Positions 47,568 through 63,730 of a DNA stretch of 64,000 bases are shown in pieces. The notes under the pieces were generated by a model that was not told where the DNA came from, ran no database searches, and saw only the letters and a program-made list of their open reading frames with translations. A program made the translations under genes and the position numbers. This stretch comes from Cladosporium halotolerans (taxonomy: Eukaryota). Positions within the stretch are counted from its first letter, which is position 1, and every line of letters begins with the position of its first letter. The stretch spans positions 1,116,001 through 1,180,000 of the forward strand of contig NW_027191452.1 in assembly GCF_011745625.1 (NCBI RefSeq). Reading direction: 5' to 3'.

Positions 47568-47803
47568 CACGTGAATTTTGCACGCGGGAGCATGTGATCA
47601 TAATTCAGAGGTGTATGATAATCACGTCCGTTGTGTGCTCTACATCACATCCTCAGCCTGACTGCGAGTCTTGCTCGTCAAAGTCCAAGTGATGAATCAA
47701 CGTGTTCACGAGGCTGGCCGCGCACGTCCCCTACACGTGAGAGCAGCCCAAAATGAAATACAGAAGAGTCAAGCAGTGTCAACGGAGCTGACTCGTCACG
47801 TGA
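47568..47803. promoter_or_regulatory. Three CACGTGA E-boxes in the divergent QIP/BBP promoter
   Basis: CACGTG at 47568, 47734 and 47797 within a 640-bp head-to-head spacer. Confidence 0.35.
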
Positions 47804-48049
47804 GTGCACTTTGAGTCCGAGGAGTCGACCTGCAGTGCTGATGCGAGTGAGTGTTGTGCCTCCCTAGAGCGCCTGACGTGCCTTGGTGCCTGGTCCCTGA
47901 GTGACAACTCGCTCGATGTGGCCCGTGCACACGCTAGCAAGAGCGCCCTCCAAGCTTCCACTTCGAGTCGCGCTCAACCTCGACACAACTTCCACTCTCA
48001 GTGCTCCACCATCCAACCTCACCGCCGACTACCGCATCGCATCATCAAC

Positions 48050-49972
48050 ATGTCGTGGCGCAACAATGCCGGCAGTACCGGCGCCAACAACATACCCCTG
48101 GGCACCCGGCGCCGCGGCGGCGACGCGAGCGAAACCCCCGATTTTGCGCCCGCCTCGAACGAAGGCAAGCGTGGTCGCAGCCCCGAACCGGTCCCTAAGG
48201 AGCCTGCCCTGAACCCGGATGGCACCAAGAAGCGTCGCAAGCGTAACCGTTGGGGCGATGCTTCGGATAACAAGGCCGCTGGCCTGATGAACCTGCCCAC
48301 GGCCATTACCGCGCCCATGACTGCCGAACAGCTGGATGCATATGTGACCCATTTGCGCATCGAGGAGATCAGCCAGAAGCTGAGGATCAACGACGTTGTC
48401 CCAGCCGATGGTGACAGGTGAGCTTGCAGTCCCACTACCTCCAATCGAGCCGAAGCTTTGGATACTAACATGTCGCAAGGTCTCCTTCTCCTCCGCCGCA
48501 ATACGATAACTTCGGTCGCCGTGTGAACACCCGCGACTATCGCTACCGTAAGAGGCTCGAAGAAGAGCGTCACAAGCTCATCGAAAAGGCGATGAAGATC
48601 ATCCCGAGCTACCACCCGCCGTCTGACTACCGCCGTCCTACTAAGACACAGGAGAAAGTCTACGTGCCGGTTAACGATTACCCAGAAATCAACTTCAGTA
48701 TGCTGCTAATTCTCCCCACCTGCACTTTACTTTGCTACTGCCTGAGCAGCAGCTTGTTGCTTATGGCGAGCAAAAGCCAATCTAACCCCGTCCCTACTAA
48801 CGCTTCCCTTCGTATCACTTGAACATTAACTAACATTAGCTTTCTTTCTACTAACAGTCGGTCTACTTATCGGTCCCCGTGGTAACACTTTGAAAACAAT
48901 GGAAAGCAAGTCTCAAGCCAAGATTGCAATTCGCGGAAAAGGCTCTGTCAAGGAAGGCAAGGGCAAATCCGATGCTGCTCACGCTAGCAACCAGGACGAA
49001 GATCTGCACTGCCTGATCATGGCAGACACTGAGGAGAAGATCATCAAAGCCAAGGAGCTCATTCACCAGGTCATTGAGACTGTAAGTCATCCGTCTTCGA
49101 CATCACGAGTTATGTTTGACCTAACAAATTCGCAGGCTGCCTCCATTCCTGAGGGCCAGAACGAGCTGAAGCGCAATCAACTTCGTGAGCTCGCCGCGCT
49201 TAACGGTACTCTCCGTGACGACGAGAATCAGGCTTGCCAGAACTGCGGTGAAATCGGCCACCGCAAGTACGACTGCCCCAACGCCAAGAATTTCACCGCA
49301 AATGTTATTTGCCGCGTTTGCGGCAATGCTGGACACTTTGCTCGCGACTGCCCGGATCGTGCCCGCGGCTCAGACTGGCGCAACATGCCACCGCGCGCCC
49401 CAACGAATGCTGCCGACAAGGAGTACGAGAACCTCATGAACGAAATTGGAGGTGGCACCGCAGGCAATCCGTCGAGGCAGATCGGCTGGCAAGAGGGTGG
49501 TGCCGGCGATGCAGCGGGTGGTGCCGATCTCAAGCCGTGGCAGCGTGGTCCTACTGGAGGCCCAGCGCCTTGGGAGCAGAACCGCCAGAACAACCCGGCT
49601 CCGTGGCAGCAACGCCCTCCGCCTGGCGGTCCTTCTGGAGGACCTGCTCCTTGGCAACAGCGCGGTGGTCAAGACAACTATGGCGGCGGTGGTGGATATG
49701 GCGGTTACGGTCAGGGAGGCTACGGTGGTGGTGGCAGAAGCTACGACGCTCCTCCGTGGCAGCGCGGTGGCGGCGATCGCGAGCCGCGTGGCGGTGGTGG
49801 TGGTGGTGGACCCGCACCATGGCAGATGCCGCAGCCGCCGCAGATGGGCTATGGAGGCACTCCCGGCATGGACTTCAACGCTCCTCCGCCGCCGCCGCCA
49901 CCGCCTGGTGGCATCCCTCCTCCTCCCCCGCCAAGCGACAACATCCCTCCGCCTCCCCCGCCGCCGCAGTAG
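48050..49972 (+). CDS. MSL5: Branchpoint-bridging protein / splicing factor 1; introns 48418-48479, 48698-48857, 49082-49135
   Basis: ULM '[10 protein letters not shown]', '[10 protein letters not shown]', KH '[16 protein letters not shown]', QUA2 '[12 protein letters not shown]', two CCHC knuckles, Pro-rich tail. Confidence 0.95.
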
Positions 49973-52124: not shown

Positions 52125-53518
52125 TGCGGTGCGGTGGGTTTTCTTGCTACCTTATGTTTGTGGATGGTGATGCGATTTGCGGCGTTTGTAATGGGGCGAG
52201 TCTCTGCACGGATTTGGGTGGGCGCTGTGGTTCTGTGTAATGATTTGATTCTTTCTTTCTTTCTTTCTTTTCGGGATGGCGGTTGGACATGCACTTTGAG
52301 AAAAAGTACCTCAGCCGAAGACGATCGCAATTCATGGATGAAGTCGTAACCAAACAATCACAATCCACCTTGCATTGCCAAAGTCACCTGGAGATGCCTC
52401 ACTATATATACACCTTGCGTACGACACGCTGGGCTTTCCCAAAGCGCGAGCCGGAGCTTACCTCAACTCACCTGCCCAATCGAAGCGCCACCTCAGATCA
52501 GGGGTTCCAAAGGACGAAAAGCGAAGCGCGTAGGCGGTCAGGACCTCTGGCAGATCGCGAGTCATCGTAAATCAATCAACCAGCCGACAAACACGATGCG
52601 GGCGGAGAAATGTGGATCGTTGCAGTGATTCCCGCGATCCAATGTCCGACAGGAACTAGCAGTGGACGAACACAAGACACTGGGAAACAGCGATGGGAAG
52701 CCACGTTTTGCAAATGAAGGGTACAAGAAAAATGACGTCTGATGATTGAACACAGCAGCTGTGAGAAAAAACTAGATAAATAAGTAAGAAAAGACATAAC
52801 AAATCTCTCCGCCCGGAGTCCTCGTCCTCCTCTCGCTGGAAAGAGGCCAGATAATGAGACAAAGTTATCCCCTCGATGCTTCCTTCCCCCTCCTTCCTTT
52901 CCGTTCCTATCCTGATGAATAGACAGCTGGATAGATACCTACTGCAAACCGGTGCTCGACGCTTCGTCGTGTTTTTCCCTTCCAATCCGCGCTGATCGGC
53001 TTCAACCTCGTTGCCATTTGCGCGTTCCAGCTCCTCTGTTCCCGATCCCGATGGACGAGACGAGGAGTCGTGGCGGCGCGCAAGGCGACTCATCGGTACT
53101 GATACAGTGCTTTCTTCGGCGGAGCAAACCCGGTTCTGTTGAATGGCTTGAAATGAACAATAAAAGGACATGGGGTTTTTTTGGGTTTCCGGCGTCGAAG
53201 AAAAAAGGGAAAGAAGGCTTCCTTCCTGTGCCTGGATTTTGTGGGGTTTTGGGTTTCTTTTGTTTCTCCAAACATGCAAATGTGATTCCGATGAAGATTC
53301 GGTTAGGGGATTGTTGGGTTCCGTTATTCGTGAGAGTCTTGAAAGTCAATGGGAAAGCGTGCGCGCCCCGGGGCCGGGACAAGGACCGGGACCGGGAATA
53401 TGTTGCTGTCATGATAGATTCGCGATGAACAAAGCAGTCAAGTCGTACTGATGATGCGTCGAGAGATACACTTTGGAAGGCTGAAGGGGTGGCGGCTTGC
53501 AAAAGCGGTGCCACCTCG

Positions 53519-54852
53519 TCAAGCGTCCATCTTTCCGAACATGCCTTCGTCGTCGTCGTGCTGGTGACGGGAAGCGTGCACGTCCTCGTCGGACATCTCT
53601 TCGTCCATGTCCACGTCCTCTTGCGGCTCCCTGTAGGGCATGCGGGAAGACGGACCGGGCACCGACGCGCCCTGGTATTTGGCAGGGAGCGGCGGGACGG
53701 GTGGTACGTCAGCAGGCAGCCCTGTAGGCACGCTGCTGGGCGTGCCGTACGAGCAACTGAGCAGACCGACTGCGGCCGCGAGGTCGGCCGGGTCTTCTTC
53801 GGGGTAGCTCTCTGCGATGCTGGTGTTGGCAGTGCCGGGCCGATTGCTGGAGGAGCTCCACTGTCGGTAGTGGTTGCCGAAGCCAGAAGTGCTGGGCGCG
53901 CTTTCCGAGAAGGCGGACTGGTAGGACCTGGAGTATGCGCTGCTGGAGGTGCTGTAGCGTTTGGCGTTGGGGTCGCGGTAAGCGTGTTCGCTTTGCGGAG
54001 GCGGTGAGGTCTCTGTCGAGCTGGGGTCGTCCTCGCGAAGGTCGGAGGAGCCGGAGGCGGCAGGAGAGGAAGCGTCACTGTCGTTCGCCGGAGTTCCATC
54101 CGCATTCATAGCCACCAACACAGACGCAGCCTCGAGCAGCTGCACCTGCTGGTGTTTTGAGATGAGCAGCTTGGAGGTGTACTGCCACTGGGGGGTGTGC
54201 TCCCAGCTGCGTATGGATCGTCAGCCTTAATTAAATCACAGCCCTACGGAAATTGCAATACGTACAGATGCTTGTTGAGGCAGCTGCCATGCTTGTACGC
54301 CTTGCCACAATGTTCACACTTGAGCTCGCCGGTGGCAGCCTTCTCTTTCTTGGTCAAGCCGGTGCCGTCGCTTGCCCTTCGTTTCGCTTTTGACTTGTCA
54401 ACGGCGGGGAAGGAGGACAGCGAAGGACCGTCTGTGAGGACGCCGGCGGTGCTTCCGGTGCGGGCAGGCATGGATGCCTGGTGGGGAAAGCTGCTCGGCA
54501 TGGAGGACTGCGCAGCGTCGCCAATGGCGGCCTTGGAGTTGCGGCGGTTGATGGCCACGGAGCCGTCGGCCACGCCGTTCTCGACAGCAGCCTCGAGGGC
54601 GGCCGGGTTGGCGGGCGCAAAGGACGAGCTCTTTCTTCTGTTGATGCGGCCGGCGCCGAGCGAGGTGGAGTGTGTACGGTTGTAGGGCTGGCGGGCAGGC
54701 AGGCTGGAGGGCGTCGAGCCGACGGAGAGACGGTGTTGGGTTGTTTGGCGTGACATGTCCTGGGGTGAGAGCGATTAGAAATGCAGGTACAGCAGGCAAG
54801 CTTTCGGGCCAGCGCCATGGGGCACAGGCGTGCATACCTTTGTTGCGGTCAT
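53519..54852 (-). CDS. Single C2H2 zinc-finger protein; introns 54760-54837, 54207-54265
   Basis: Spliced 'CEHCGKAYKHGSCLNKHLWEH...SKHQQVQLLEAASVL' and 'AAVGLLSCSYGTP'. Confidence 0.88.
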
Positions 54853-57849
54853 GGCAGTGGGAGGCGGTGGATTGGGCGCGCTGGTCAATGGGCCGGGCGG
54901 ACGAGGTGCCGGCTGACCTTTGAGCAGGCGGTTCTTTGTTGAGGGCGAATTGTTGGAAATGTTTCCTGGGAGCCTCGGAAGGCTGACACAGCCGCGAGCG
55001 CCGAGATCGCCAGAGGTGGCACTCAGCTGACAGGGTGCGGGCGAGACAGGTGATGGGCGGGGAGGCGGGCGGTGGTGAGGGTGGAGGGGGGATGCAGTAG
55101 CTCGTGCAGGCGGCGGCGTGGTATGGTGGGAGGGTGAGGGTGGTGAGGGCGAAGGCAGGTCAGACGGTCGGCGGCGAATAAGTTGGGCGAGCAACAACAT
55201 TGCCCGCAGGCGCCGCACGAGGACAGCGCGCGAGACACAGCACTGGCGCTGGCGCCGGGCAGGCTGGCGGAGGGGAGCGGCGATCCACGATCGCTGCAGC
55301 CAGCAGGGCCAGCTGGGCCAGCACGGCCAGCCCGCACGGCCAGCTTCCCTGCCGGGCTGGCGCGGGCGCAGGCGCGCGAGTGGGGTCGGCCAATGGGCGC
55401 GCGCGCGCCGAGGGCAGGGGCCGCTGGTGTCTCCAGCAGCCAACGGTCACGGGCGCGGGCTGCGGAGAGCGAGGAGAGACTCGAGGAGAGGAGAGGAGAG
55501 ACGACGGGCGACGCGCGACGGGCGACGAGCCCAGGCGAGACAGCAATCGCGATGGCCTGACGGGCATGTCGCGCAGGCGCTTTGCCATGCTTGCAATAGG
55601 TATTCCCCATGCTCCAGACCCCGTGCGAGCATACCTATCCAGGTATTGCGGCGACTCCTATTGCGAGCCTCCCACTGCGGAGAGCTGTGTACATACGTAC
55701 CTATCAATACCTCGGGGCACCAACAGTCCCTGCGCTGCCTCAGGTCGCCCGCCCGCAGTCTAGAACGGGCGCTCCCTCACTCCCCTCGCCTCGCCTCGCC
55801 ACCGCAGTCACGGGGCATCAGCGTCGTATTCCCTCCATACGTACATACGTACATACGTACCGCCGCGCGCGATTGCAACGTGTTGCCCGCGCCGGTTCGG
55901 ACGCGCACTCCGAGAATGCCATCATCCCCCATGCGCCGTGCGCCGTGCGCCGCTGGTCAGTTGATGTCCCCACACGCCCGCACCGCCTGCGCCCTAGGCC
56001 CGTCTTAGGCGCGTGCGATAACCACCCACGCCCGCACCATTTGCTCCTCGCCGTGCGCGCCTTTCGCCTGCCACGCGCGATGTGGCGCCGACCGCCTGCG
56101 CGCATGGACGACCTGGGTGGATCCACGATGGTAATTATCCTCCGTCGATTGACCGTGACGCCAGGACTCCTGCCCTCGCCGACGAGCCCGCCGCCGTCAC
56201 CATTGCGCATCCTCCGAGCCCGTGTCCGTCAGCCGCCGACGGCCTCCCTGCCCTCGGCGACTGATCTGTGTGTGATCTGTGATCGCCAGAATCCCACTCG
56301 CTTGCTGCCCTGTCAGCCTGCGAACATGCAAATCGCCATCTGCTCTGCGAAGATCGCCAGGCCGATCGCGCCTGCACTGATTGCTACACAGCATGGCTCC
56401 CGAAAAAAAAATTGTCTCTGTCCCCTATCGCAGCTTGCACCCTGTGAAAATGCTATCTTGGACCCTGCCTCCTAATCGCACTGCAGTCACGTAGTGCATG
56501 CTTCGTTCCTGCTTCTGATTGCGGCGCCCACCCTCGCTAGCGCCTCCGCCAGTTCCAGACAGAGCGCGAGGTCTGGCGTGCTGGGCCAAGGCACGGTGCC
56601 GGACCCAAGCGACCGCGGCCTTTGCAGTCTCGGGCTGCCGATAGGGCCACTGGATAAGCGACGCCACAGATAGCGCAATACTCGCGGCCACCTGTGCACA
56701 TTATCATTGGCAGCGCCGTCAGCAGCACGTCTTCCGGCGAGATATGACTCTGTGCGATAACGTGCTGCGACCAGCGCTTGACGAACACGCGCCGGCCAGG
56801 CACCACGGTACCTTAATCTCCACGAGGCATTATCATTCTCCTCGTTATGATCCAGCGCGCGGAGCCTCGACTGGCCCCGCACGCACCCCGCCGCCGAGAC
56901 ACGCCTCGACACAGCCGCAAGCGCACAGGGATCCCCTCAATCTAATCATCACGCCCGCCGATGCGCCTGTTCTCCAGGAAAGTGCATCGGGGATCGACGC
57001 GACTAGGTAGGTATCTGCGGCTCACGGCGCAGCCGAATGCCGAATGCAGTTCAGGGCAGGACCAAAAAATTAAATCTGGCCGACAGACAGCCGCGGCGGC
57101 GTACACTATCGCTTGTAGACGGAGTGATTCGTTCATTGAAGTGTCTCCCAGCTCGCCTATTGGGTTTCCTTCCTACAGTCGTAGTCACCTTCATGCTGCA
57201 CACCTCGCCATGCGCGGAGTATCTCATCGGCAGAAGCTTGGCCAGAAATTCACAAGATAGGTAGCCAAAGCCAAACTTCTCTCCGCCCTCTTCCCACCTA
57301 TCAATCGCCTCAGGGTCGCGCAAGTAGACGGATAGACACGATACAGTAATACATCTCGAAACACGCTCGCTCGACCAAAGGGCCCCCGGACGGCCCCCCT
57401 CCCACGCACAAGCCCAATGCCTCACCGAGTCCAGAGCTCCAGTCCCATCCCCATCCCAATGCCCACAACTGCCGCCGCGCCTCCCAGACCCCGATTCCCC
57501 CTCCCCATGAAACGCCGCCTACGCAGCTGCTGCACCGCCCTGCCGCGCGCCGCGCATGAACCGGCACCAGCCAGTCTCGCCAGCGCAGGCCATTGCAGCA
57601 CCGAATCCGCGGGAGGGGAGGGCCAAGTACAGCACCTACCTACCTCCCGCACGCCATGCTGACGGACATGACACCTTCCCAATCAATACAACCCGAGCTC
57701 GCGAGGCGGCCGGGCAGCAGCAGCGTGAGATCACTGTCATCGCAGTCCGAGCCGCGACCAAAAAAATAAAACACGTGCGGCGGCGTTTTTCCTGGCCCGG
57801 CTTTTCTGGGATCCGCTGAAAAGTCGCCGTCACTACTGCCCAGGGCCAG

Positions 57850-59620
57850 CGCAGCCAGCCAGCTAGGTCTCGACCGCCGCTCTCCAGAAAGAGAACATGT
57901 CCGCGCCGCAGAGTGAGCTCTGGGCTCGTCATCGCGCGGAGGAAGGCCTTGGGCGGACTCCACTGATTCTCAGAAGCTGCTACCGCCCGTCCCGTCTGTG
58001 ACGGGGGAGATCCAATGGCTGTGCGTGAGACTGGGTTGGAGAGCCGGAGCCGCGTCCGCTGAGTGGAGGGCTGCCGTCGGGACAATTGCCACTTGGTTAG
58101 AAGTCACGTGCTAAGGGTTTCACGTGACGTGTACCGAGAGGGGGGGGGTTCTGGGTCTGCCTGCCTGTTTGTGAAGACGGGAGCTGGGATATTAATGAGT
58201 GTTCCGGTCTCGGAAGAACGGCGTGTAAGAGCTTCACCAGAGGTTTGCGTTGCTGCGCGTTTTCCAACCGTTTTTTCGGCGTACTTCGCGCCGCGAGTGC
58301 TCGTCCTAGGTGCTCCGCGCTTTGCTCGTCTGTAATCCCAACCCTAACCCTACCAGCCCTATTCGACCATCTGCCGTGTGAAGGGTTGGTTTACCAGCGC
58401 ACTTCAGCAACGTAGGAAACAGGTAAAAGCCGTCTTTGTTTGTTGGCCGTTTTTTGCCATTTGAGGTGAGTCACTGCCGAGATACTTTTGTGCACGACGG
58501 CGTTGTGTTGCGGTTGAATCGTTGCTCTCCTTTCTCGCTGATCCAACATCAGTGCAGTCCATGAACACTGCTGACCGCGGGCCTACCCAACAAATACCAG
58601 ACCTCTCGTTACAATTCTTGATACCCAATGAAACAATATGAACGGCCATATTTTCTCACGATGAAACAACCCTAGTTCGCATACTCGCAGGACCGGCAAC
58701 AGCGCAGAACCACAAACTCCCCTCCAACAACCGCTTTGATAAGTCAACATCTTCCCGAGGGCGGTTTCCTTTTCCACGCCAATGGCCGGACACCAGAAGA
58801 AGGTGCCTGGCGTAGCGATGACCGACCGACGGAGAGACGGCGAAGCTCATCGTCTTGCCTTCTCTCGAATATTATAGCCGTCCCTTTTGTAAGCCCGGGT
58901 TCAGAAATACAGCTGCTCCGCTAGGCTGATACGACGCCCCTTCGACACCAGGACTCGCGCTGAATGTGGCATCGAGACTCGCGTGGTGAGGAGGGGTTTT
59001 GCAGGGCCATGGAAGGCGTTGTGGCAGCGATGATCAATGCTGCGGCATCGATCTCCGCCGCAGCTGGTCCACGCTGCGAACACTGGGAAGCGAGGCGAAG
59101 CTGTGGGATGGGATTGGCTGTGACACGTCTGCCTTGAGAGCTCTCAAGAAGAAATTACATGCGTGGTATGTGCATTTGCTATGGTACAATTTGTCCTTGC
59201 CGTTTGTTGGCGACAGAGTTATTTTCAGCGGCGGGGTGCCGGGAAGGAGAAAGCAGATGTACAAAGGTTGAAAACAAAAACGGTCGGGGGAGACCGAGAA
59301 ACGAGAAGGAAGTTGCGTGACCGGCAAAGTAAGGCTCCGGTTGGCCTTGGGCTGGGATTGTGATTATGCAGTCTTTGTCGTCTTCCGAGAGATCGAACCA
59401 ATCCATGACGAGTCGTAATCTGCGCTCGCTCGCTTCCGGAGCCAGTAACCCGGTGCCGTGTTTCCAATCGATCAGCACGCTCAAGTGAGAAGCATGCTAG
59501 GTGCGTGCTCAGTGGCGTACTTGTAGTACATCTCGGAGCACGCCTGCTCAACAGTATCGACGGTCCGCCAGATGAAGCTCAGCAGCGCCCGGACACTCGG
59601 CTGCTTCTTCTCGTAGTACC
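57850..59620 (+). ncRNA. TER: Candidate telomerase RNA; both ends approximate
   Basis: Template AACCCTAACCCTA at 58340-58352; pseudoknot helices 58429-34/58496-501, 58445-54/59276-85 and 58484-94/59258-68; enclosing helices 58208-58279/59294-59390; no credible + strand ORF; CR4/5 not located. Confidence 0.72.
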
Positions 59621-60356
59621 AGTACGACGTCAGCTCCTCCAGCCGCGTGATCGTCCATCCCCAGAGCCAGTGCAGCCAGCCGATGACATCGATCTTGCCG
59701 TCGCGCCAGGACGCCGCCGTGTTGCTGCGCGGGAACGGCGTGCTGGGAACCTTGCCATCAGGACAGCCGACGAAGTCACAGAGCAGCGGCCAGTTGGCGT
59801 CGCCGTCGTCAACCGTGAGCTCGAGGTAGCGCTCTGGCTGGCCGGCGAAGAACTCGCGCACGCGCGCCGTGTGGTTCGTGTACGACTGGCGGATCGTCTC
59901 CTCGTTGCCGTCGAACGTGACCGCGCCGTAGAAGTGCGAGTAGCCGATCCACTCGCCGCGGCCGACGTGGCGGCGCATCGACTTGAGCCAGGTGGCGTCG
60001 TCCTTGCGCAGGCTGAGGATGAACTTCGAGTCCGGGTATAGCTCCGCCATCTCGCGGTACAGGTGCGGCCAGGGCAGGTCCTCGAAGGCGTCGTAGAAGC
60101 GCGTCTGCTCTATCAGCGGCTCGTACTCGCCGTTCACGTACGAGTGCACCATGTGCCGGCTGCGGATGTCCTTCCAGCCCAGCCGCTTGTACCCGATCTG
60201 CGCGAGGGCATCGCCGAAGGAGGTCGTGCCGGTTTTGGAGAAGCCGATCACGAAGACTTTGGGTTTCAGGTTTTGGGGCGGCTGCGCGAGCTCGGTGCAG
60301 ATGAGGACGATGATCGAGAAGAGCAGGACGGGGATTGCGAGCGATGAGGCCTGCAT
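59481..60356 (-). CDS. Sulfotransferase-family (Sulfotransfer_4-like) protein with N-terminal signal anchor
   Basis: PAPS-binding loop 'VIGFSKTGTTSFGDAL', 'YPDSKFILSLR...WLKS', 'WPLLCDFVG..VP..PFPRSN'. Confidence 0.85.
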   Translation of the reverse strand: MQASSLAIPVLLFSIIVLICTELAQPPQNLKPKVFVIGFSKTGTTSFGDALAQIGYKRLGWKDIRSRHMVHSYVNGEYEPLIEQTRFYDAFEDLPWPHLYREMAELYPDSKFILSLRKDDATWLKSMRRHVGRGEWIGYSHFYGAVTFDGNEETIRQSYTNHTARVREFFAGQPERYLELTVDDGDANWPLLCDFVGCPDGKVPSTPFPRSNTAASWRDGKIDVIGWLHWLWGWTITRLEELTSYWYYEKKQPSVRALLSFIWRTVDTVEQACSEMYYKYATEHAPSMLLT

Positions 60357-62098
60357 TGCGGGCAGATAATCCGCGAACGCGGCGTGGTGTTGTACGCAGA
60401 CAGGACGCACCGCAGATCGCAGAGCCGAGGATCTGGTACCGAGCTCCTGACGGTGTAGAAAGACGCGGTATCACACGCTGCACCTACCTGCGACGACGTG
60501 ACGTTGAAGGGCGGAGGGGGAGCGCACTCAACGGCGACCAGACAAGCCTTTTTCGCAAACCCTCAGATCATTTGACGGGTCCCGCTCCGCGTGCGGGTCT
60601 CGGCATCTTGGAGATGGGCAGACACGTGCATGTGTGCATACTGGTCGAGAGGTAGTTGTCCCCGACTTCTGTACAGGTGCATCTTGGAGCGGTGGGATGG
60701 AGACGCAGGTCGCGTCAGGGTCGAGATGGACAAGGCGATACACGCGCATCCGCGGGCGGCGTTCCGTCGCGTTTGGGCGCACACGCACACGCACGCAGGT
60801 CGGCTGTCACCGCGACAGAGCGACAAGCCGCGCGGTCAAGAGCTTGCGAATCTTATTAGGGGCGGAGGGTTGCGCACTCAGCCCTACCGATCCGATCGCC
60901 TGTTGAGGTCCTGAGGCGATGGTGAAATAACGATGACCGGCAGGAGGGTGCTACAAAGGCACGGCAGGCAATGGATCGGCAGCGCGCGCGTTGCAGCGAG
61001 CAGGAGTGTCGTGGTTCTGTGTCGCACCGCGTGCCGCCCACGGAGGCACAGCCACGTGCCGCGAACCCTGCGTGTGCGCTCACTTCTGTACTTCGATTGT
61101 ACCTCACAGTACACGTCCGCCCGAAGAAAAGGGCACAACACACCGCCGCCCTCAGCAAGCGCGTAGCCGCCGGTCAACAGCGCACAGGCGGCGGGCTGCG
61201 TCACGGCGTGCTGTACTTGTTACAGCAGAGCAGAGCAGTCGTGGCGCTGTGGAGCGCCTCGTCACGCCGCCTATCTGGACCCTACGTGCACACTACAACG
61301 CGATACGCCGGACGAGTGGGACGGAACCTCGCGAGCTTGTGCTCATTCTAGGCGGCTTGGCTCGCGTGGCATCTGCCGTCAACGCATGTGTGCCGCCCAC
61401 GACGGGTCAGCACCAAGCGTGTCATGAGCGCTCACCTCGCCACTTCCAGTCTGCGGCCATCTGGGCCTGCGAGCGCAGCAATGGCGGGTGGCGAACTGGC
61501 GTAGCGGGCGCTGCATGTTGTCTTAGGTTGTGGCTTGATAGCGCTACTGCGAGCCCTCGGCTGTCTTCAGCACCCTTCCCGGCGCTAGAAGAATGAAGCC
61601 CGCGCGGACCTCGACCGTTGTTGAGACGAAACTGATCGGCCCGGCCGTCTCCTTGCCCTGGCGAGAGCGTGCGTGCGTGCCCTCGATGGCAGAACCTGTT
61701 TGCGTTCGAAAGGCGTCGTTCATTATTGGGTGAAATCGCGTGTGAGACCTTGAGAAATGCTCGTGCAACCAGCCGATCGATACAGACCTGGATCAATGGC
61801 GGGCTGCAACACAGGTGTGGCCGACGGCTGTGGCGCGCCGTCTGTATTCAACGGCGAACCAACGCGGTCACACACCTCACGGGCCATGATCCATGCTCGT
61901 GCAGATTATCATTGGACGGCCCCTGTCACCTGGCTAGCGACACCAGGAAAATTAGGTGCTCCGCGCACCCTTTGCGATCATCCTTTCATTCTGTAGCTTC
62001 ACCTGAGAGTGACCTCACCCAAGACGCCCCGCCCCATCCTCCGAGATGATTTGACCCGGACCTCCCATAGACACCTCACTGCTGGCTCCCTCAACACC

Positions 62099-63730
62099 AT
62101 GACTGCGTTCCTTTGGCGGGCATTGTTCGCCGTGGTCGTTGTCGTGCTTGTTGCGCAAAACATCCTGCTCTGGCATTCTTCTGGCAAACCATCCGAACCT
62201 TCGATTCCTCTACCCAAGAATGGACACAGGCCCTCGAGTCAACCCGAGGAGAGCCACCCAGAGAGCCAAACAACTCTGGTGTCACATGAGTCGAACTGGA
62301 CCTATGAGCCTCTGAAACATGCAGAGGACTTCACCCTCAATCGCCACAAGTGCGAGATAGCCTTCCCGGATCTCTGGTACGAAATCGACCGATCCGTCTC
62401 GTACTGGAAACACAACATCTCGCGCTCGATCACCGAAGACGACATCTCCCTCGACTGGCGCGAGAATGGCGCCTTCCGGGCCTTGATCCACAGGAACCAG
62501 CTTCGCATCATCGAAACAAAGGGCATCTTCACCCTCGAGGGCTCGCAGTTCCCCGAACGTGCAATCGCCGTCTGGCAGCAAATCCACCGCGCCCTCCTCG
62601 GCGCCACCGCAGCAGGAGAGACCCTCCCCTCCATTGAGTTCTCCGTGAGCGTGGACGATCGGCCCGACACCCCCGAGGAAGACCCCGAGGACACGCACAC
62701 GCTCTGGTCCTTCTCCCGCAAATACGACAACCCCGCGCACGACCGCGCCTGGGTCATGCCGGACTTCAACTTCTGGTCCTGGCGCGGCGTGGCCGGCTCC
62801 TTCACCGAGATGCGCGCCCGCGGCAAGCAGCTGGACGAGTACATCGAGGACAAGATCCAGAAGGCCGTGTGGCGCGGCGTGGTCTGGACGAACCCGGACG
62901 TGCGCGCGCCGCTGCTCGAGGCGACGCAGGGCAAGCCCTGGGCCGACGTCGTCGAGTTCGACTGGATGACGCACGCCAACTTCATCCCCATGGAGGACTT
63001 CTGCCGCTACGCGCTCCTCGTGCACACCGAGGGCCGCTCGTGGTCCGGCCGCCTGAAGTACCTGCTCAACTGCGACTCCGTCACCATGATCCACGACCGC
63101 GAGTGGACCGCGCACTACTACAGCCTGCTGAAGGACAGCGGGCCCGGCCAGAACTACGTGTCCGTCAAGCGCGACTTCTCGGATCTGAGGGAGAAGGTGC
63201 TGCACCAGCTGACGGACGTGCGCGACGCGCAGAGGATCGCGAACAACGCCGTGGCGACCTTCCGCGACCGCTACCTGACGCTCGCGGCGGAGACGTGCTA
63301 CTGGAGGCGGATGATCCAGTCGTGGAGTGATATTGCGTTCAGCCCGGAGGTCTACGAGGATGTGGAGAAGAATATTACGGGCAAGATGAAGACGAAGCGG
63401 ATGCTGAGGGGCATTGCGTTCGAGGAGATGGTGACGCAGGGTGCGAGGCGGGATGAATACCCGCCTACGCCGAAGGAGGAGGAACCTGCTGAGGGAGAGG
63501 GAGAAGAGGGAGAGGTTGAGGGAGAAGGTGAAGGTGAGGACGAGGGCGAGGGCGAGGGAGAAGGCGAGGGAGAAGGACAGGGCGAAGGCGAGGGCAGCGA
63601 AGCAGAGACGAAAGAGGGGGCTCACGGGACGAACGAGGGCGGGAGCAGCAGTGATGGATCGGACAAGGAAGGCGGAGGAGCAGACGCTCCACAGACCAGC
63701 AGCGCTGCCAAACACGGCCAGACAGGGTGA
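62099..63730 (+). CDS. Glycosyltransferase family 90 (CAP10 domain), type II membrane protein
   Basis: Signal anchor, 'WVMPDFNFWSW', 'KAVWRG', 'FCRYALLVHTEGRSWSGRLKYLLNCDS', 'QNYVSVKRDFSDL'. Confidence 0.88.
   Translation: MTAFLWRALFAVVVVVLVAQNILLWHSSGKPSEPSIPLPKNGHRPSSQPEESHPESQTTLVSHESNWTYEPLKHAEDFTLNRHKCEIAFPDLWYEIDRSVSYWKHNISRSITEDDISLDWRENGAFRALIHRNQLRIIETKGIFTLEGSQFPERAIAVWQQIHRALLGATAAGETLPSIEFSVSVDDRPDTPEEDPEDTHTLWSFSRKYDNPAHDRAWVMPDFNFWSWRGVAGSFTEMRARGKQLDEYIEDKIQKAVWRGVVWTNPDVRAPLLEATQGKPWADVVEFDWMTHANFIPMEDFCRYALLVHTEGRSWSGRLKYLLNCDSVTMIHDREWTAHYYSLLKDSGPGQNYVSVKRDFSDLREKVLHQLTDVRDAQRIANNAVATFRDRYLTLAAETCYWRRMIQSWSDIAFSPEVYEDVEKNITGKMKTKRMLRGIAFEEMVTQGARRDEYPPTPKEEEPAEGEGEEGEVEGEGEGEDEGEGEGEGEGEGQGEGEGSEAETKEGAHGTNEGGSSSDGSDKEGGGADAPQTSSAAKHGQTG
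63488..63600 (+). repeat. Coding (GARGGN)n repeat giving an acidic Glu-Gly tract in the GT90 tail
   Basis: EGEGEEGEVEGEGEGEDEGEGEGEGEGEGQGEGEG. Confidence 0.8.

Follow-up and report, generated by a model that had tools for sequence, protein, structure and literature searches.

Fungal telomerase RNAs (TERs) are long, fast-diverging and mostly unannotated, and a non-coding interval of Cladosporium halotolerans raises the question of whether such a gene lies there. The interval carries a perfect telomere-like 13-mer on the + strand, around which an earlier note had drawn a TER core of template, boundary hairpin, pseudoknot and enclosing helix, within 58200-59400 of the window (the whole 64-kb stretch of DNA analysed here). 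We favor, at a probability of roughly 0.4, a composite of ordinary parts, a regulatory region plus a UTR, over a single folded RNA of 1.2 kb. The call of a TER gene is an open minority possibility, because the proposed fold does not exceed chance and key features of a TER are missing.

The description of the locus as an intergenic gap holds for its coding content, with all six frames negative over 56400-59470 and no Pfam match, and the non-coding DNA around the 13-mer amounts to 3 kb. At its right end, 59114-59480 is covered by an RNA-like contig that runs on through the minus-strand sulfotransferase gene. This contig comes from X12, a run from the same organism that is not recorded as RNA; its depth is uneven (0, 5 or 50), and we therefore treat it as RNA-like. 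Record 8 of X12 (1607 nt, depth 50) extends from 59114 through the sulfotransferase coding sequence to beyond 60500, a contig from a separate study, X1, starts at 59116, and no loose ends were seen at either start. The coverage is consistent with a 3' UTR, and 59114-59480 is probably that of the convergent sulfotransferase mRNA. Further left, the ends of two X12 contigs, 58101 and 58145, flank a composite of CACGTG boxes, and the right-hand contig begins about 195 nt to the left of the 13-mer, which it contains. Low-depth RNA-like contigs (2.5-5.8) reach leftward to 56756, towards a minus-strand C2H2-like gene. The X12 coverage gaps at 58578-59113 and 57193-57664 are evidence neither way.

Features of the locus, in window coordinates. 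X12 contigs are strandless.
Feature	Position	Strand	Remark
Weak C2H2-like gene	~53400-54800	-	Coding signal 53470-54620
X12 contig, depth 5.4 (record 5 or 6)	57665..58101		RNA-like run
Composite TCACGTG - CTAAGGGTT - TCACGTG(ACGTG)	58104..58127		Two CACGTG (Cbf1-type) boxes around telomere-like AGGGTT
X12 contig, depth 5.7 (record 5 or 6)	58145..58577		RNA-like run
13-mer AACCCTAACCCTA	58340..58352	+	Candidate template or tandem TTAGGG-factor site (predicted)
AGGGTTGGT, telomere-like word in G-strand sense	58382..58390	+	Complementary to 58352-60 and to the 13-mer (58338-45)
Stem 1, GCCGTC/GACGGC around U-rich tract TTTGTTTGTTGGCCGTTTTTT	58429..58501	+	In minimum-free-energy fold
ATAAGT	58739..58744	+	Sole copy downstream of the 13-mer; no preceding U tract
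P6/P6.1-like element CGTTG-loop-CGATG, ATCA, ATGC-TGCG-GCAT	59017..59048	+	5' of the A-rich strand
AAACAAAAAC (A-rich strand)	59272..59281	+	Same letters as core of Aspergillus TER CS4 (pseudoknot A-strand) motif
Probable 3' UTR of sulfotransferase mRNA	59114..59480	-	Contains the 3' strands drawn at 59258-59390
Sulfotransferase gene (Sulfotransfer_4)	59481..60410	-	Pfam E 5.5e-32; strong coding signal

The template-like string for TTAGGG is present as claimed: AACCCTAACCCTA is the C-strand telomere repeat, two repeats plus one nucleotide with no mismatch, and the sole telomere-like word of at least 9 nt in the 64-kb window. Base composition predicts about 0.01 exact 13-mers of the telomere repeat per 64 kb and about 5 per 30 Mb, and CCCTAACCCTAA at up to one mismatch gave 1 match against 0.05 expected (at least one match in 5 of 100 shuffles). 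Partition-function calculations in three of four contexts predicted the 13-mer to be less paired than the RNA average (unpaired 0.63-0.68 versus 0.37), with 58340-45 pairing to 58382-87 at a probability of 0.42-0.53. In a full-length context for the fold of the earlier note, 58145-59480, it was no less paired than average (unpaired 0.38 versus 0.36), and its predicted partner was 59233-59243. The predicted hairpin at 58288-58320 stops about 20 nt 5' of the 13-mer, whereas the template boundary helix of the Aspergilli lies about 2 nt from the template; the helices that do abut 58339 are long-range alternatives of 5-6 bp, read by eye and at chance level. The 13-mer also exceeds the 1.5 to 2 repeats that are the norm for templates of Pezizomycotina TERs (PMC3603654), and a template complement 30 nt downstream likewise speaks against a template.

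Every string quoted for the proposed fold lies where it had been placed. The U-rich loop and all eight strand pairs are positioned as described, and the strands do pair, some of them through G-U pairs and, in the two enclosing helices 58269-79/59294-303 and 58256-65/59308-17, with 1-2 mismatches. Compared with chance, the fold does not stand out. Allowing G-U pairs, 58200-59400 offers 47 helices of at least 10 bp, against 32.7 +/- 6.2 in 60 shuffles (one of which reaches 47) and 8-43 in eight control stretches of the window. At 11 bp or more the count is 18 against 11.7 +/- 3.7 (6 of 60 shuffles reach 18), and with Watson-Crick pairs only, one helix of at least 10 bp is found where 0.5 are expected (24 of 60 shuffles reach 1). 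AAAAACGGT at 59276-84 has an equally good partner at 58267-75, and the duplex energy of 58425-58505 with 59240-59320 ranks 6141-9213 among 12788 60-mers across the window, i.e. at the median. On the reading that we favor, the long-range helices are pairings that any 1.2 kb of such composition offers. The strands of the enclosing helix do pair, and helices of that size are expected by chance; the stem 1 region (58429-58501) has a z-score of -0.48. The 5' strand of the second pseudoknot helix and the 3' strand of the first are 41 nt apart, whereas the helices of known pseudoknots are described as contiguous. The drawn structure is not supported: its helices do not exceed chance, a probable convergent 3' UTR contains its 3' strands, and it is followed by neither CR4/5 nor an AUAAGU-type site.

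Sequence from a relative was confined to two short pieces, which showed no clear compensatory change; the G54/C66 change would be compensatory only if the RNA adopted a fold in competition with a conserved hairpin. Within one contig no difference was listed over 58489-58530 and at most 2 over 58459-58530, against 12 in the 61 nt of 58531-58591 (Fisher p 0.003). Divergence is highest in the other piece, 58933-59029, with 12 differences over its 97 nt; its alignment ends inside the P6/P6.1-like element. Elsewhere, a metagenome scan with a 17-mer around the template found at least 102 stretches, and 0 of 101 loci resembled 56001-61000 at E <= 1e-3. Neither the sulfotransferase nor an SF1 alignment, each scanned against genome contigs, led to a relative, and the literature searched on Sordariomycete and Dothideomycete TERs (including PMC12137546) held nothing useful.

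What does stand out around the 13-mer is a cluster of short words. Counting both orientations, 58000-58499 holds 9 telomere-like pentamers, where 500 nt of the window have 1.12 on average (sd 1.27), and no other bin of the window ranks higher; 2 of the window's 10 copies of AGGGTT fall in it. TCACGTG itself is at its expected frequency across the window (9 copies versus 9.59), its copies being grouped at 58104-27 and upstream of the SF1 gene. The promoter next door also carries TTAGGGG, AGGGTT and CCCTA (60853-60890); when 58090-58430 was compared with that promoter (60500-61150), the similarity scores were 17-22 where the null mean is 21.2, and hence showed no likeness.

General regulatory factors open promoters and insulate divergent genes, and the telo-box of plants is a comparable promoter element. 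In the composite that we favor, 58100-58400 would be a regulatory region around which low-level transcripts appear to start. Its words (two CACGTG boxes, AGGGTT at 58114, the 13-mer at 58340 and AGGGTTGG at 58382) would be bound, as DNA, by a bHLH factor of the Cbf1 type and by a Myb factor that recognizes TTAGGG (Tbf1, Tay1 or Teb1 type). A poorly constrained spacer (58580-59113) would follow, after which the convergent sulfotransferase mRNA would have its 3' UTR. The motifs, their clustering, the chance level of the helices, the lack of coding signal and a coverage consistent with a 3' UTR are observed; that proteins bind these words, which way the transcripts run and where the poly(A) site lies are inferred. 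In A. fumigatus and N. crassa, according to PMC4138321, TBF1 motifs occur in excess ahead of ribosomal-protein genes; in C. albicans these genes are driven by TBF1 and CBF1, and the sites are frequently palindromic pairs. Like clusters of Tbf1/Cbf1-type sites in ascomycete promoters (Hogues et al. 2008 as cited in PMC4138321), the one here has TTAGGG-type words both ways, partly as an inverted pair, beside CACGTG and near apparent transcript starts. Unlike them, it consists of sites predicted from sequence, its 13-mer is apparently transcribed, and its neighbors are neither ribosomal-protein nor snoRNA genes. We know of no Tbf1/Cbf1-type site clusters described in Dothideomycetes.

Several observations sit uneasily with a composite. 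The 13-mer lies inside an RNA-like contig, where a template would be expected more readily than an upstream site; the sulfotransferase and C2H2-like neighbors fall outside the ribosomal-protein and snoRNA class; TCACGTG is not enriched window-wide; and an exact CS4-like 10-mer and a unique ATCA-plus-hairpin would both have to be coincidence.

Those last two are among the features that keep a + strand TER in contention, one that would start near 58145, use 58340-52 as template and have an architecture other than that drawn; we consider this somewhat less probable than the composite. Like known Pezizomycotina TERs (NcrTER of N. crassa and those of Aspergillus; Qi et al. 2013, Kuprys et al. 2013), the locus has, within a long non-coding region, a stretch that resembles a template for TTAGGG-type repeats. 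Its RNA-like contig begins just past the TCACGTG boxes, and Aspergillus TER alignments open with a conserved upstream TCACGTG block labelled 'Promoter?'. The U-rich tract (58435-54) and the A-rich strand, which resemble CS3 and CS4, are both present, the pairing between them being at chance level. AAACAAAAAC occurs exactly once in the whole window on either strand; at up to one mismatch it has 3 matches versus 2.09 expected, and the only nearby near-copy (one mismatch) is at 58432-41 on the opposite strand, i.e. in the U-rich tract. A possible enclosing 3' strand begins 9 nt after the A-rich strand, the order of helix I after CS4 in Aspergillus. The U-rich and A-rich strands lie about 70 nt apart in the Aspergilli and 830 nt apart here; so distant an A-strand is not absurd, because in N. 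crassa some 850 nt separate the template region from the pseudoknot on its 3' side (T-PK3 = nt 225-255, 434-462 and 1289-1515). The little-changed block 58459-58530 and the below-average pairing predicted for the 13-mer in three of four contexts also fit a TER. A compact pseudoknot through CCAACAAA at 58587-94 was discarded, as the relative alters 3 bases there, and likenesses to the Aspergillus alignment seen by eye at GGTTTACCA (58387) and GTTGCTCTCCT (58521) are, for so many comparisons, of chance length by a rough estimate rather than a computation.

The remaining hallmarks argue against a TER. Of the 175 P6.1-like hairpins in 128 kb, only the one at 59037 is preceded by ATCA, and the element to which it belongs resembles the Aspergillus junction ATCA-AAGC-TYAG-GCTT; its P6 is weak, and the minimum-free-energy fold favors a different structure. 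Five P6.1-like hairpins occur in 58353-60300 and none in 59290-60250, 3' of the proposed pseudoknot, where CR4/5 would be required. AGAG-N5-CTCT is the P6.1 pattern of human TR; neither it nor the Aspergillus junction motif at up to 5 substitutions was found near the locus. In the Aspergilli, the spliceosome makes the TER 3' end by cutting at AUAAGU or AUACGU, which is accompanied by a branch site and, upstream, by a U-rich Sm-like site, and work by Qi and colleagues in 2015 reportedly extended this rule across Pezizomycotina. The full combination is absent at any plausible 3' end here: the ATAAGT at 58739 (0.16 expected by chance in 58353-59480) is followed only by a weak branch-like ATGAC near 58819 and then TAG at 58876, and no ATAAGT or ATACGT occurs on the + strand from 58744 to 62000. 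Rfam probably has an ascomycete TER model, and the covariance-model check returned no telomerase family at E up to 10, a negative of uncalibrated sensitivity.

Length and order count against a TER as well. The 970-1340 nt free here compare with 2425 nt for the TER of M. graminicola, the one measured in a fellow Dothideomycete, and 2049 nt for NcrTER; the model overlaps the convergent 3' UTR, and the relative diverges most over 58933-59029. The canonical TER order is template, pseudoknot, CR4/5, 3' site, whereas the + strand reads 13-mer, U-rich tract, ATAAGT, P6/P6.1-like element, A-rich strand. Under the canonical order the P6/P6.1 element and the A-rich strand could not both serve, and the TER-like hints (13-mer, CACGTG boxes, CS4-like motif and P6/P6.1-like element) are mutually inconsistent in order. 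A TER here would need an unusually long 13-nt template, a non-canonical layout and a 3' end away from AUAAGU. Its A-strand would lie 830 nt from the U-strand and overlap the convergent 3' UTR, or else its core would be compact, with a P6.1 at 59037 whose loop has 4 nt; we rate such a TER a minority possibility.

Less probable still is an origin of the 13-mer by chance or as a relict, which would make it a functionless interstitial telomere-like sequence. It would then lie in a transcript of the minus-strand C2H2-like gene, as part of a long 5' leader or further upstream, or in a non-coding RNA that is promoter-associated and unstable. The expectation of about 5 exact copies per 30 Mb allows for this, the low-depth contigs extend in the direction of that gene, and flexible searches turned up incomplete likenesses to almost all TER elements, as they would in random sequence. 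Like interstitial telomeric sequences, the 13-mer is a short perfect repeat distant from a chromosome end, the stretch lying at least about 56 kb from both ends of a 179-kb contig in a DNA-like run. Unlike them, it has just 13 nt, no flanking degenerate array, and separate words in opposite orientation; telomere-like words are grouped on the two strands and next to the CACGTG boxes, and this speaks against an accident, as does the conserved block 58489-58530.

Another spliced + strand non-coding RNA, such as a host transcript, is improbable: a search listed intron-like signals at 58466-58552 (GTGAGT ... GCTGAT ... CAG) and 58889-58951 (GTAAGC ... GCTGAT ... CAG), the first with a variant seen by eye that ends at 58600 (GCTGAC at 58570, CAG at 58600) and with the conserved block inside it, but the X12 contig is continuous across 58466 with no joint reported, the branch A at 58574 is G in the relative, and no snoRNA or other Rfam family was matched. 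Two special cases were set aside, the 58466-58600 intron as a TER 3' site (the altered branch A; the RNA would be too short) and a snoRNA host (no C/D or H/ACA boxes by eye, no Rfam match).

The case illustrates how readily a template-like word and hand-drawn helices mimic a TER, with some 30 helices of at least 10 bp expected by chance in 1.2 kb of this composition. If the motif cluster consists of sites for a TTAGGG factor and a CACGTG factor, it would be an ordinary promoter feature; the TER call, if true, would offer a handle on telomere maintenance in a little-studied group of Dothideomycetes.

The telomere-like 13-mer AACCCTAACCCTA and all of the strings and pairings that the earlier note had quoted for a plus-strand telomerase RNA (TER) gene are present at their coordinates, although some pairs are G-U and two of the enclosing helices contain one or two mismatches. 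The 13-mer and the quoted strings are thus real as sequence, but the structure drawn from them is no evidence. The 13-mer (58340-58352) holds the sole telomere-repeat 9-mer within the 64-kb window, where a 12-mer search allowing one mismatch gave one match versus 0.05 expected. Base composition predicts exact 13-mers at about 0.01 per 64 kb and about 5 per 30 Mb, and because of the latter figure the 13-mer by itself is not diagnostic of a gene. At least 102 unrelated contigs from metagenomes (loci L001-L079) carry the 17-mer CCCAACCCTAACCCTAC, a number of the order due to chance by a rough, uncomputed estimate.

Helices in 58200-59400 were counted against 60 dinucleotide shuffles, with eight other stretches of the window as controls. 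With G-U pairs allowed, there were 47 helices of at least 10 bp versus 32.7 +/- 6.2 in the shuffles (1 of 60 reached 47) and 8-43 in the controls, and 18 of at least 11 bp versus 11.7 +/- 3.7 (6 of 60 reached 18); the single perfect Watson-Crick helix of at least 10 bp compares with 0.5 expected and was matched in 24 of 60 shuffles. These counts are at chance level, and therefore the perfect 10-bp helix, the 11-bp helix and stem 2 (58445-58454/59276-59285), all proposed as TER structure, are what chance provides. In addition, AAAAACGGT at 59276-59284 has an equally good alternative partner at 58267-58275, the duplex energy of U-rich 58425-58505 with 59240-59320 ranks 6141-9213 among 12788 window 60-mers, and local folding of 59185-59300 and of the boundary and stem-1 hairpins gives z-scores of -0.5 to -0.8.

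We tentatively read the interval, at a probability of about 0.4, as a composite of a regulatory motif cluster, a spacer and a convergent 3' UTR. The fungal DNA of the window is rich in GC (52-66%). Its branchpoint-binding protein shares 79-81% identity with Cladosporium counterparts, followed among named matches by Zasmidium, Rachicladosporium, Fulvia, Pseudocercospora and Hortaea, which places the source among Dothideomycetes close to Cladosporiales/Mycosphaerellales; a protein-atlas look-up likewise pointed to Ascomycota. With a codon-usage score trained on four of the window's ORFs that have Pfam support, every frame on both strands is negative between 56400 and 59470, and only the minus-strand sulfotransferase gene scores strongly positive; leftward, minus-strand coding signal resumes at 53470-54620. 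The non-coding interval therefore spans about 3 kb, so that the gap called intergenic is indeed non-coding by codon usage, but exceeds the extent drawn for it. Coding signal and a weak zinc-finger match suggest a transcription-factor-like gene on the minus strand at 53400-55400, and a long 5' leader of this C2H2-like gene may explain the RNA-like contigs at 56756-58101.

Contigs from sequencing runs carry no strand, and parts without cover are no evidence. Run X11 is DNA-like, with the whole stretch inside one 179-kb contig from which the window may derive, whereas run X12, under the same organism label, looks like RNA because its depth is very uneven, no run being recorded as RNA. Near 59114, contigs of X12 and of run X1 end no more than 2 nt apart, neither showing a loose end, and the DNA run continues past them, a weak hint of a true RNA end. 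Read by eye, the minus-strand sequence at this point resembles a poly(A) site. Because the ends from two studies coincide and the minus strand is poly(A)-like, we read 59114-59480 as the convergent sulfotransferase mRNA's 3' UTR. All 3' strands of the proposed TER model (59258-59390) fall inside it. A G run lies between two of the X12 contigs and may merely interrupt the assembly instead of separating two transcription starts.

Coordinates of genes, motifs and sequencing-run contigs in the window
Feature	Coordinates	Strand	Remarks
TCACGTG boxes	47568-47803		four, overlapping or adjacent, directly upstream of SF1 gene
SF1/branchpoint-binding-protein gene	47804-49969		with introns
Coding signal	53470-54100, 54310-54620	minus	weak zf-C2H2 match (E 0.005)
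X12 contigs	56756-56924, 56989-57192, 57665-58101, 58145-58577	strandless	depth 2.5-5.8
G run	58138-58147		about 9 G, exactly in 43-nt gap between X12 contigs (58101/58145)
X12 contig	59114 through sulfotransferase gene to >60500	strandless	1607 nt, depth 50
X1 contig (another study)	starts 59116	strandless	225 nt, identical
Palindrome	59133-59148		perfect, 16 nt, TTGAGAGCTCTCAA-type, about 20 nt inside apparent sulfotransferase mRNA 3' end
Sulfotransferase gene	59481-60350	minus	
CACGTG boxes	60623, 61053		sulfotransferase/GT90 promoter
Glu/Gly repeat (EGEGEGE...)	63500-63640		long, C-terminal in GT90 (CAP10-domain) protein

That a plus-strand TER lies here in a layout unlike the drawn one is doubtful. 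The comparison drew on excerpts of Qi et al. 2013, Kuprys et al. 2013 with its ten-Aspergillus TER alignment, and Kannan et al. 2015. That alignment opens with a conserved TCACGTG block labelled 'Promoter?', and two TCACGTG boxes (58104-58127) lie just ahead of the X12 contig start at 58145. AAACAAAAAC at 59272-59281, the sole exact copy in the window, equals the core of CS4, the Aspergillus pseudoknot A-strand motif, and the drawn enclosing 3' strand follows 9 nt later, mirroring the position of core-enclosing helix I after CS4 in Aspergilli. Also in favor is the distance in N. crassa, where the excerpts of Qi et al. 2013 place the pseudoknot about 850 nt past the template region. At 59017-59048, a hairpin, ATCA and then ATGC-TGCG-GCAT resemble Aspergillus ATCA-AAGC-TYAG-GCTT; among 175 P6.1-like hairpins in 128 kb, no other is preceded by ATCA. 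However, its P6-like stem is weak, the minimum-free-energy fold favors another structure, and the contig alignment of a relative (run X2) ends within it, at 59029. The order also conflicts: the P6/P6.1-like element precedes the A-rich strand, and the sole AUAAGU downstream of the 13-mer, the motif of 3' processing in Aspergilli, lies 5' of both. Plus-strand ATAAGT is confined, within 55000-62000, to positions 55178 and 58739 (about 0.16 expected by chance in 58353-59480); the latter is not preceded by a U tract and has just a weak branch-like site. Five P6.1-like hairpins (4 bp, U..G in a 4-5-nt loop) lie in 58353-60300 and none in 59290-60250, 3' of the drawn pseudoknot.

Three of four contexts predict a template less paired than the RNA average (0.63-0.68 versus 0.37 unpaired), but in the full-length context, 58145-59480, it is predicted to be mostly paired with 59233-59243 and no more accessible than average (0.38 versus 0.36). 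Its complement AGGGTTGG competes for pairing 30 nt downstream, and about 20 nt separate the boundary hairpin from the template. Free space amounts to 970-1340 nt versus 2425 nt in the one Dothideomycete TER measured in the excerpts of Qi et al. 2013. Neither the Aspergillus junction motif within 5 substitutions nor the human-type P6.1 pattern, used as a search query, was found near the locus. No telomerase family in Rfam matched 650-800-nt slices even at E up to 10, a negative that is uncalibrated, as Rfam probably, but not certainly, includes an ascomycete TER model. Flexible descriptors gave a partial match somewhere for almost every TER element, as unrelated sequence yields such matches.

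In the relative, 58459-58622 shows 14 differences over 164 nt, of which the 12 listed all fall in 58531-58591, and therefore at most two fall in 58459-58530. Given at most two differences there versus 12 in the following 61 nt (Fisher p 0.003), the block 58459-58530 is constrained. The second piece, 58933-59029, has 12 differences over 97 nt, and no clear compensatory change was found in the two pieces. It is unlikely that the 13-mer is a functionless motif within a leader or promoter transcript. A different spliced non-coding RNA is less probable still. Separately, a 3226-nt X12 contig (depth 36) has just 30 exact bases (58548-58577) in common with the window before it diverges into sequence found nowhere in the window; the low-depth contig 58145-58577 stops at the same position.

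Under the composite reading, 58000-58499 would be a cluster of candidate TTAGGG-factor and CACGTG-factor sites where transcripts start. Telomere-like pentamers in both orientations peak in this bin (9 versus 1.12 +/- 1.27 per 500 nt), which also holds 2 of the window's 10 AGGGTT copies, one flanked by the two CACGTG boxes, the second forming an inverted pair with the 13-mer. The next promoter (sulfotransferase/GT90) has TTAGGGG, AGGGTT and CCCTA within 40 nt at 60853-60890. Against this, none of the neighboring genes belongs to the ribosome, and the 13-mer is apparently transcribed. According to excerpts of PMC4138321, the upstream regions of ribosomal-protein genes are enriched in TBF1 motifs in A. 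fumigatus and N. crassa, whose C. albicans counterparts are driven by TBF1 and CBF1. The excerpts add that the sites are often palindromic pairs. Given these precedents, a TTAGGG-factor and CACGTG-factor site cluster in a transcript-start region is an established kind of element.
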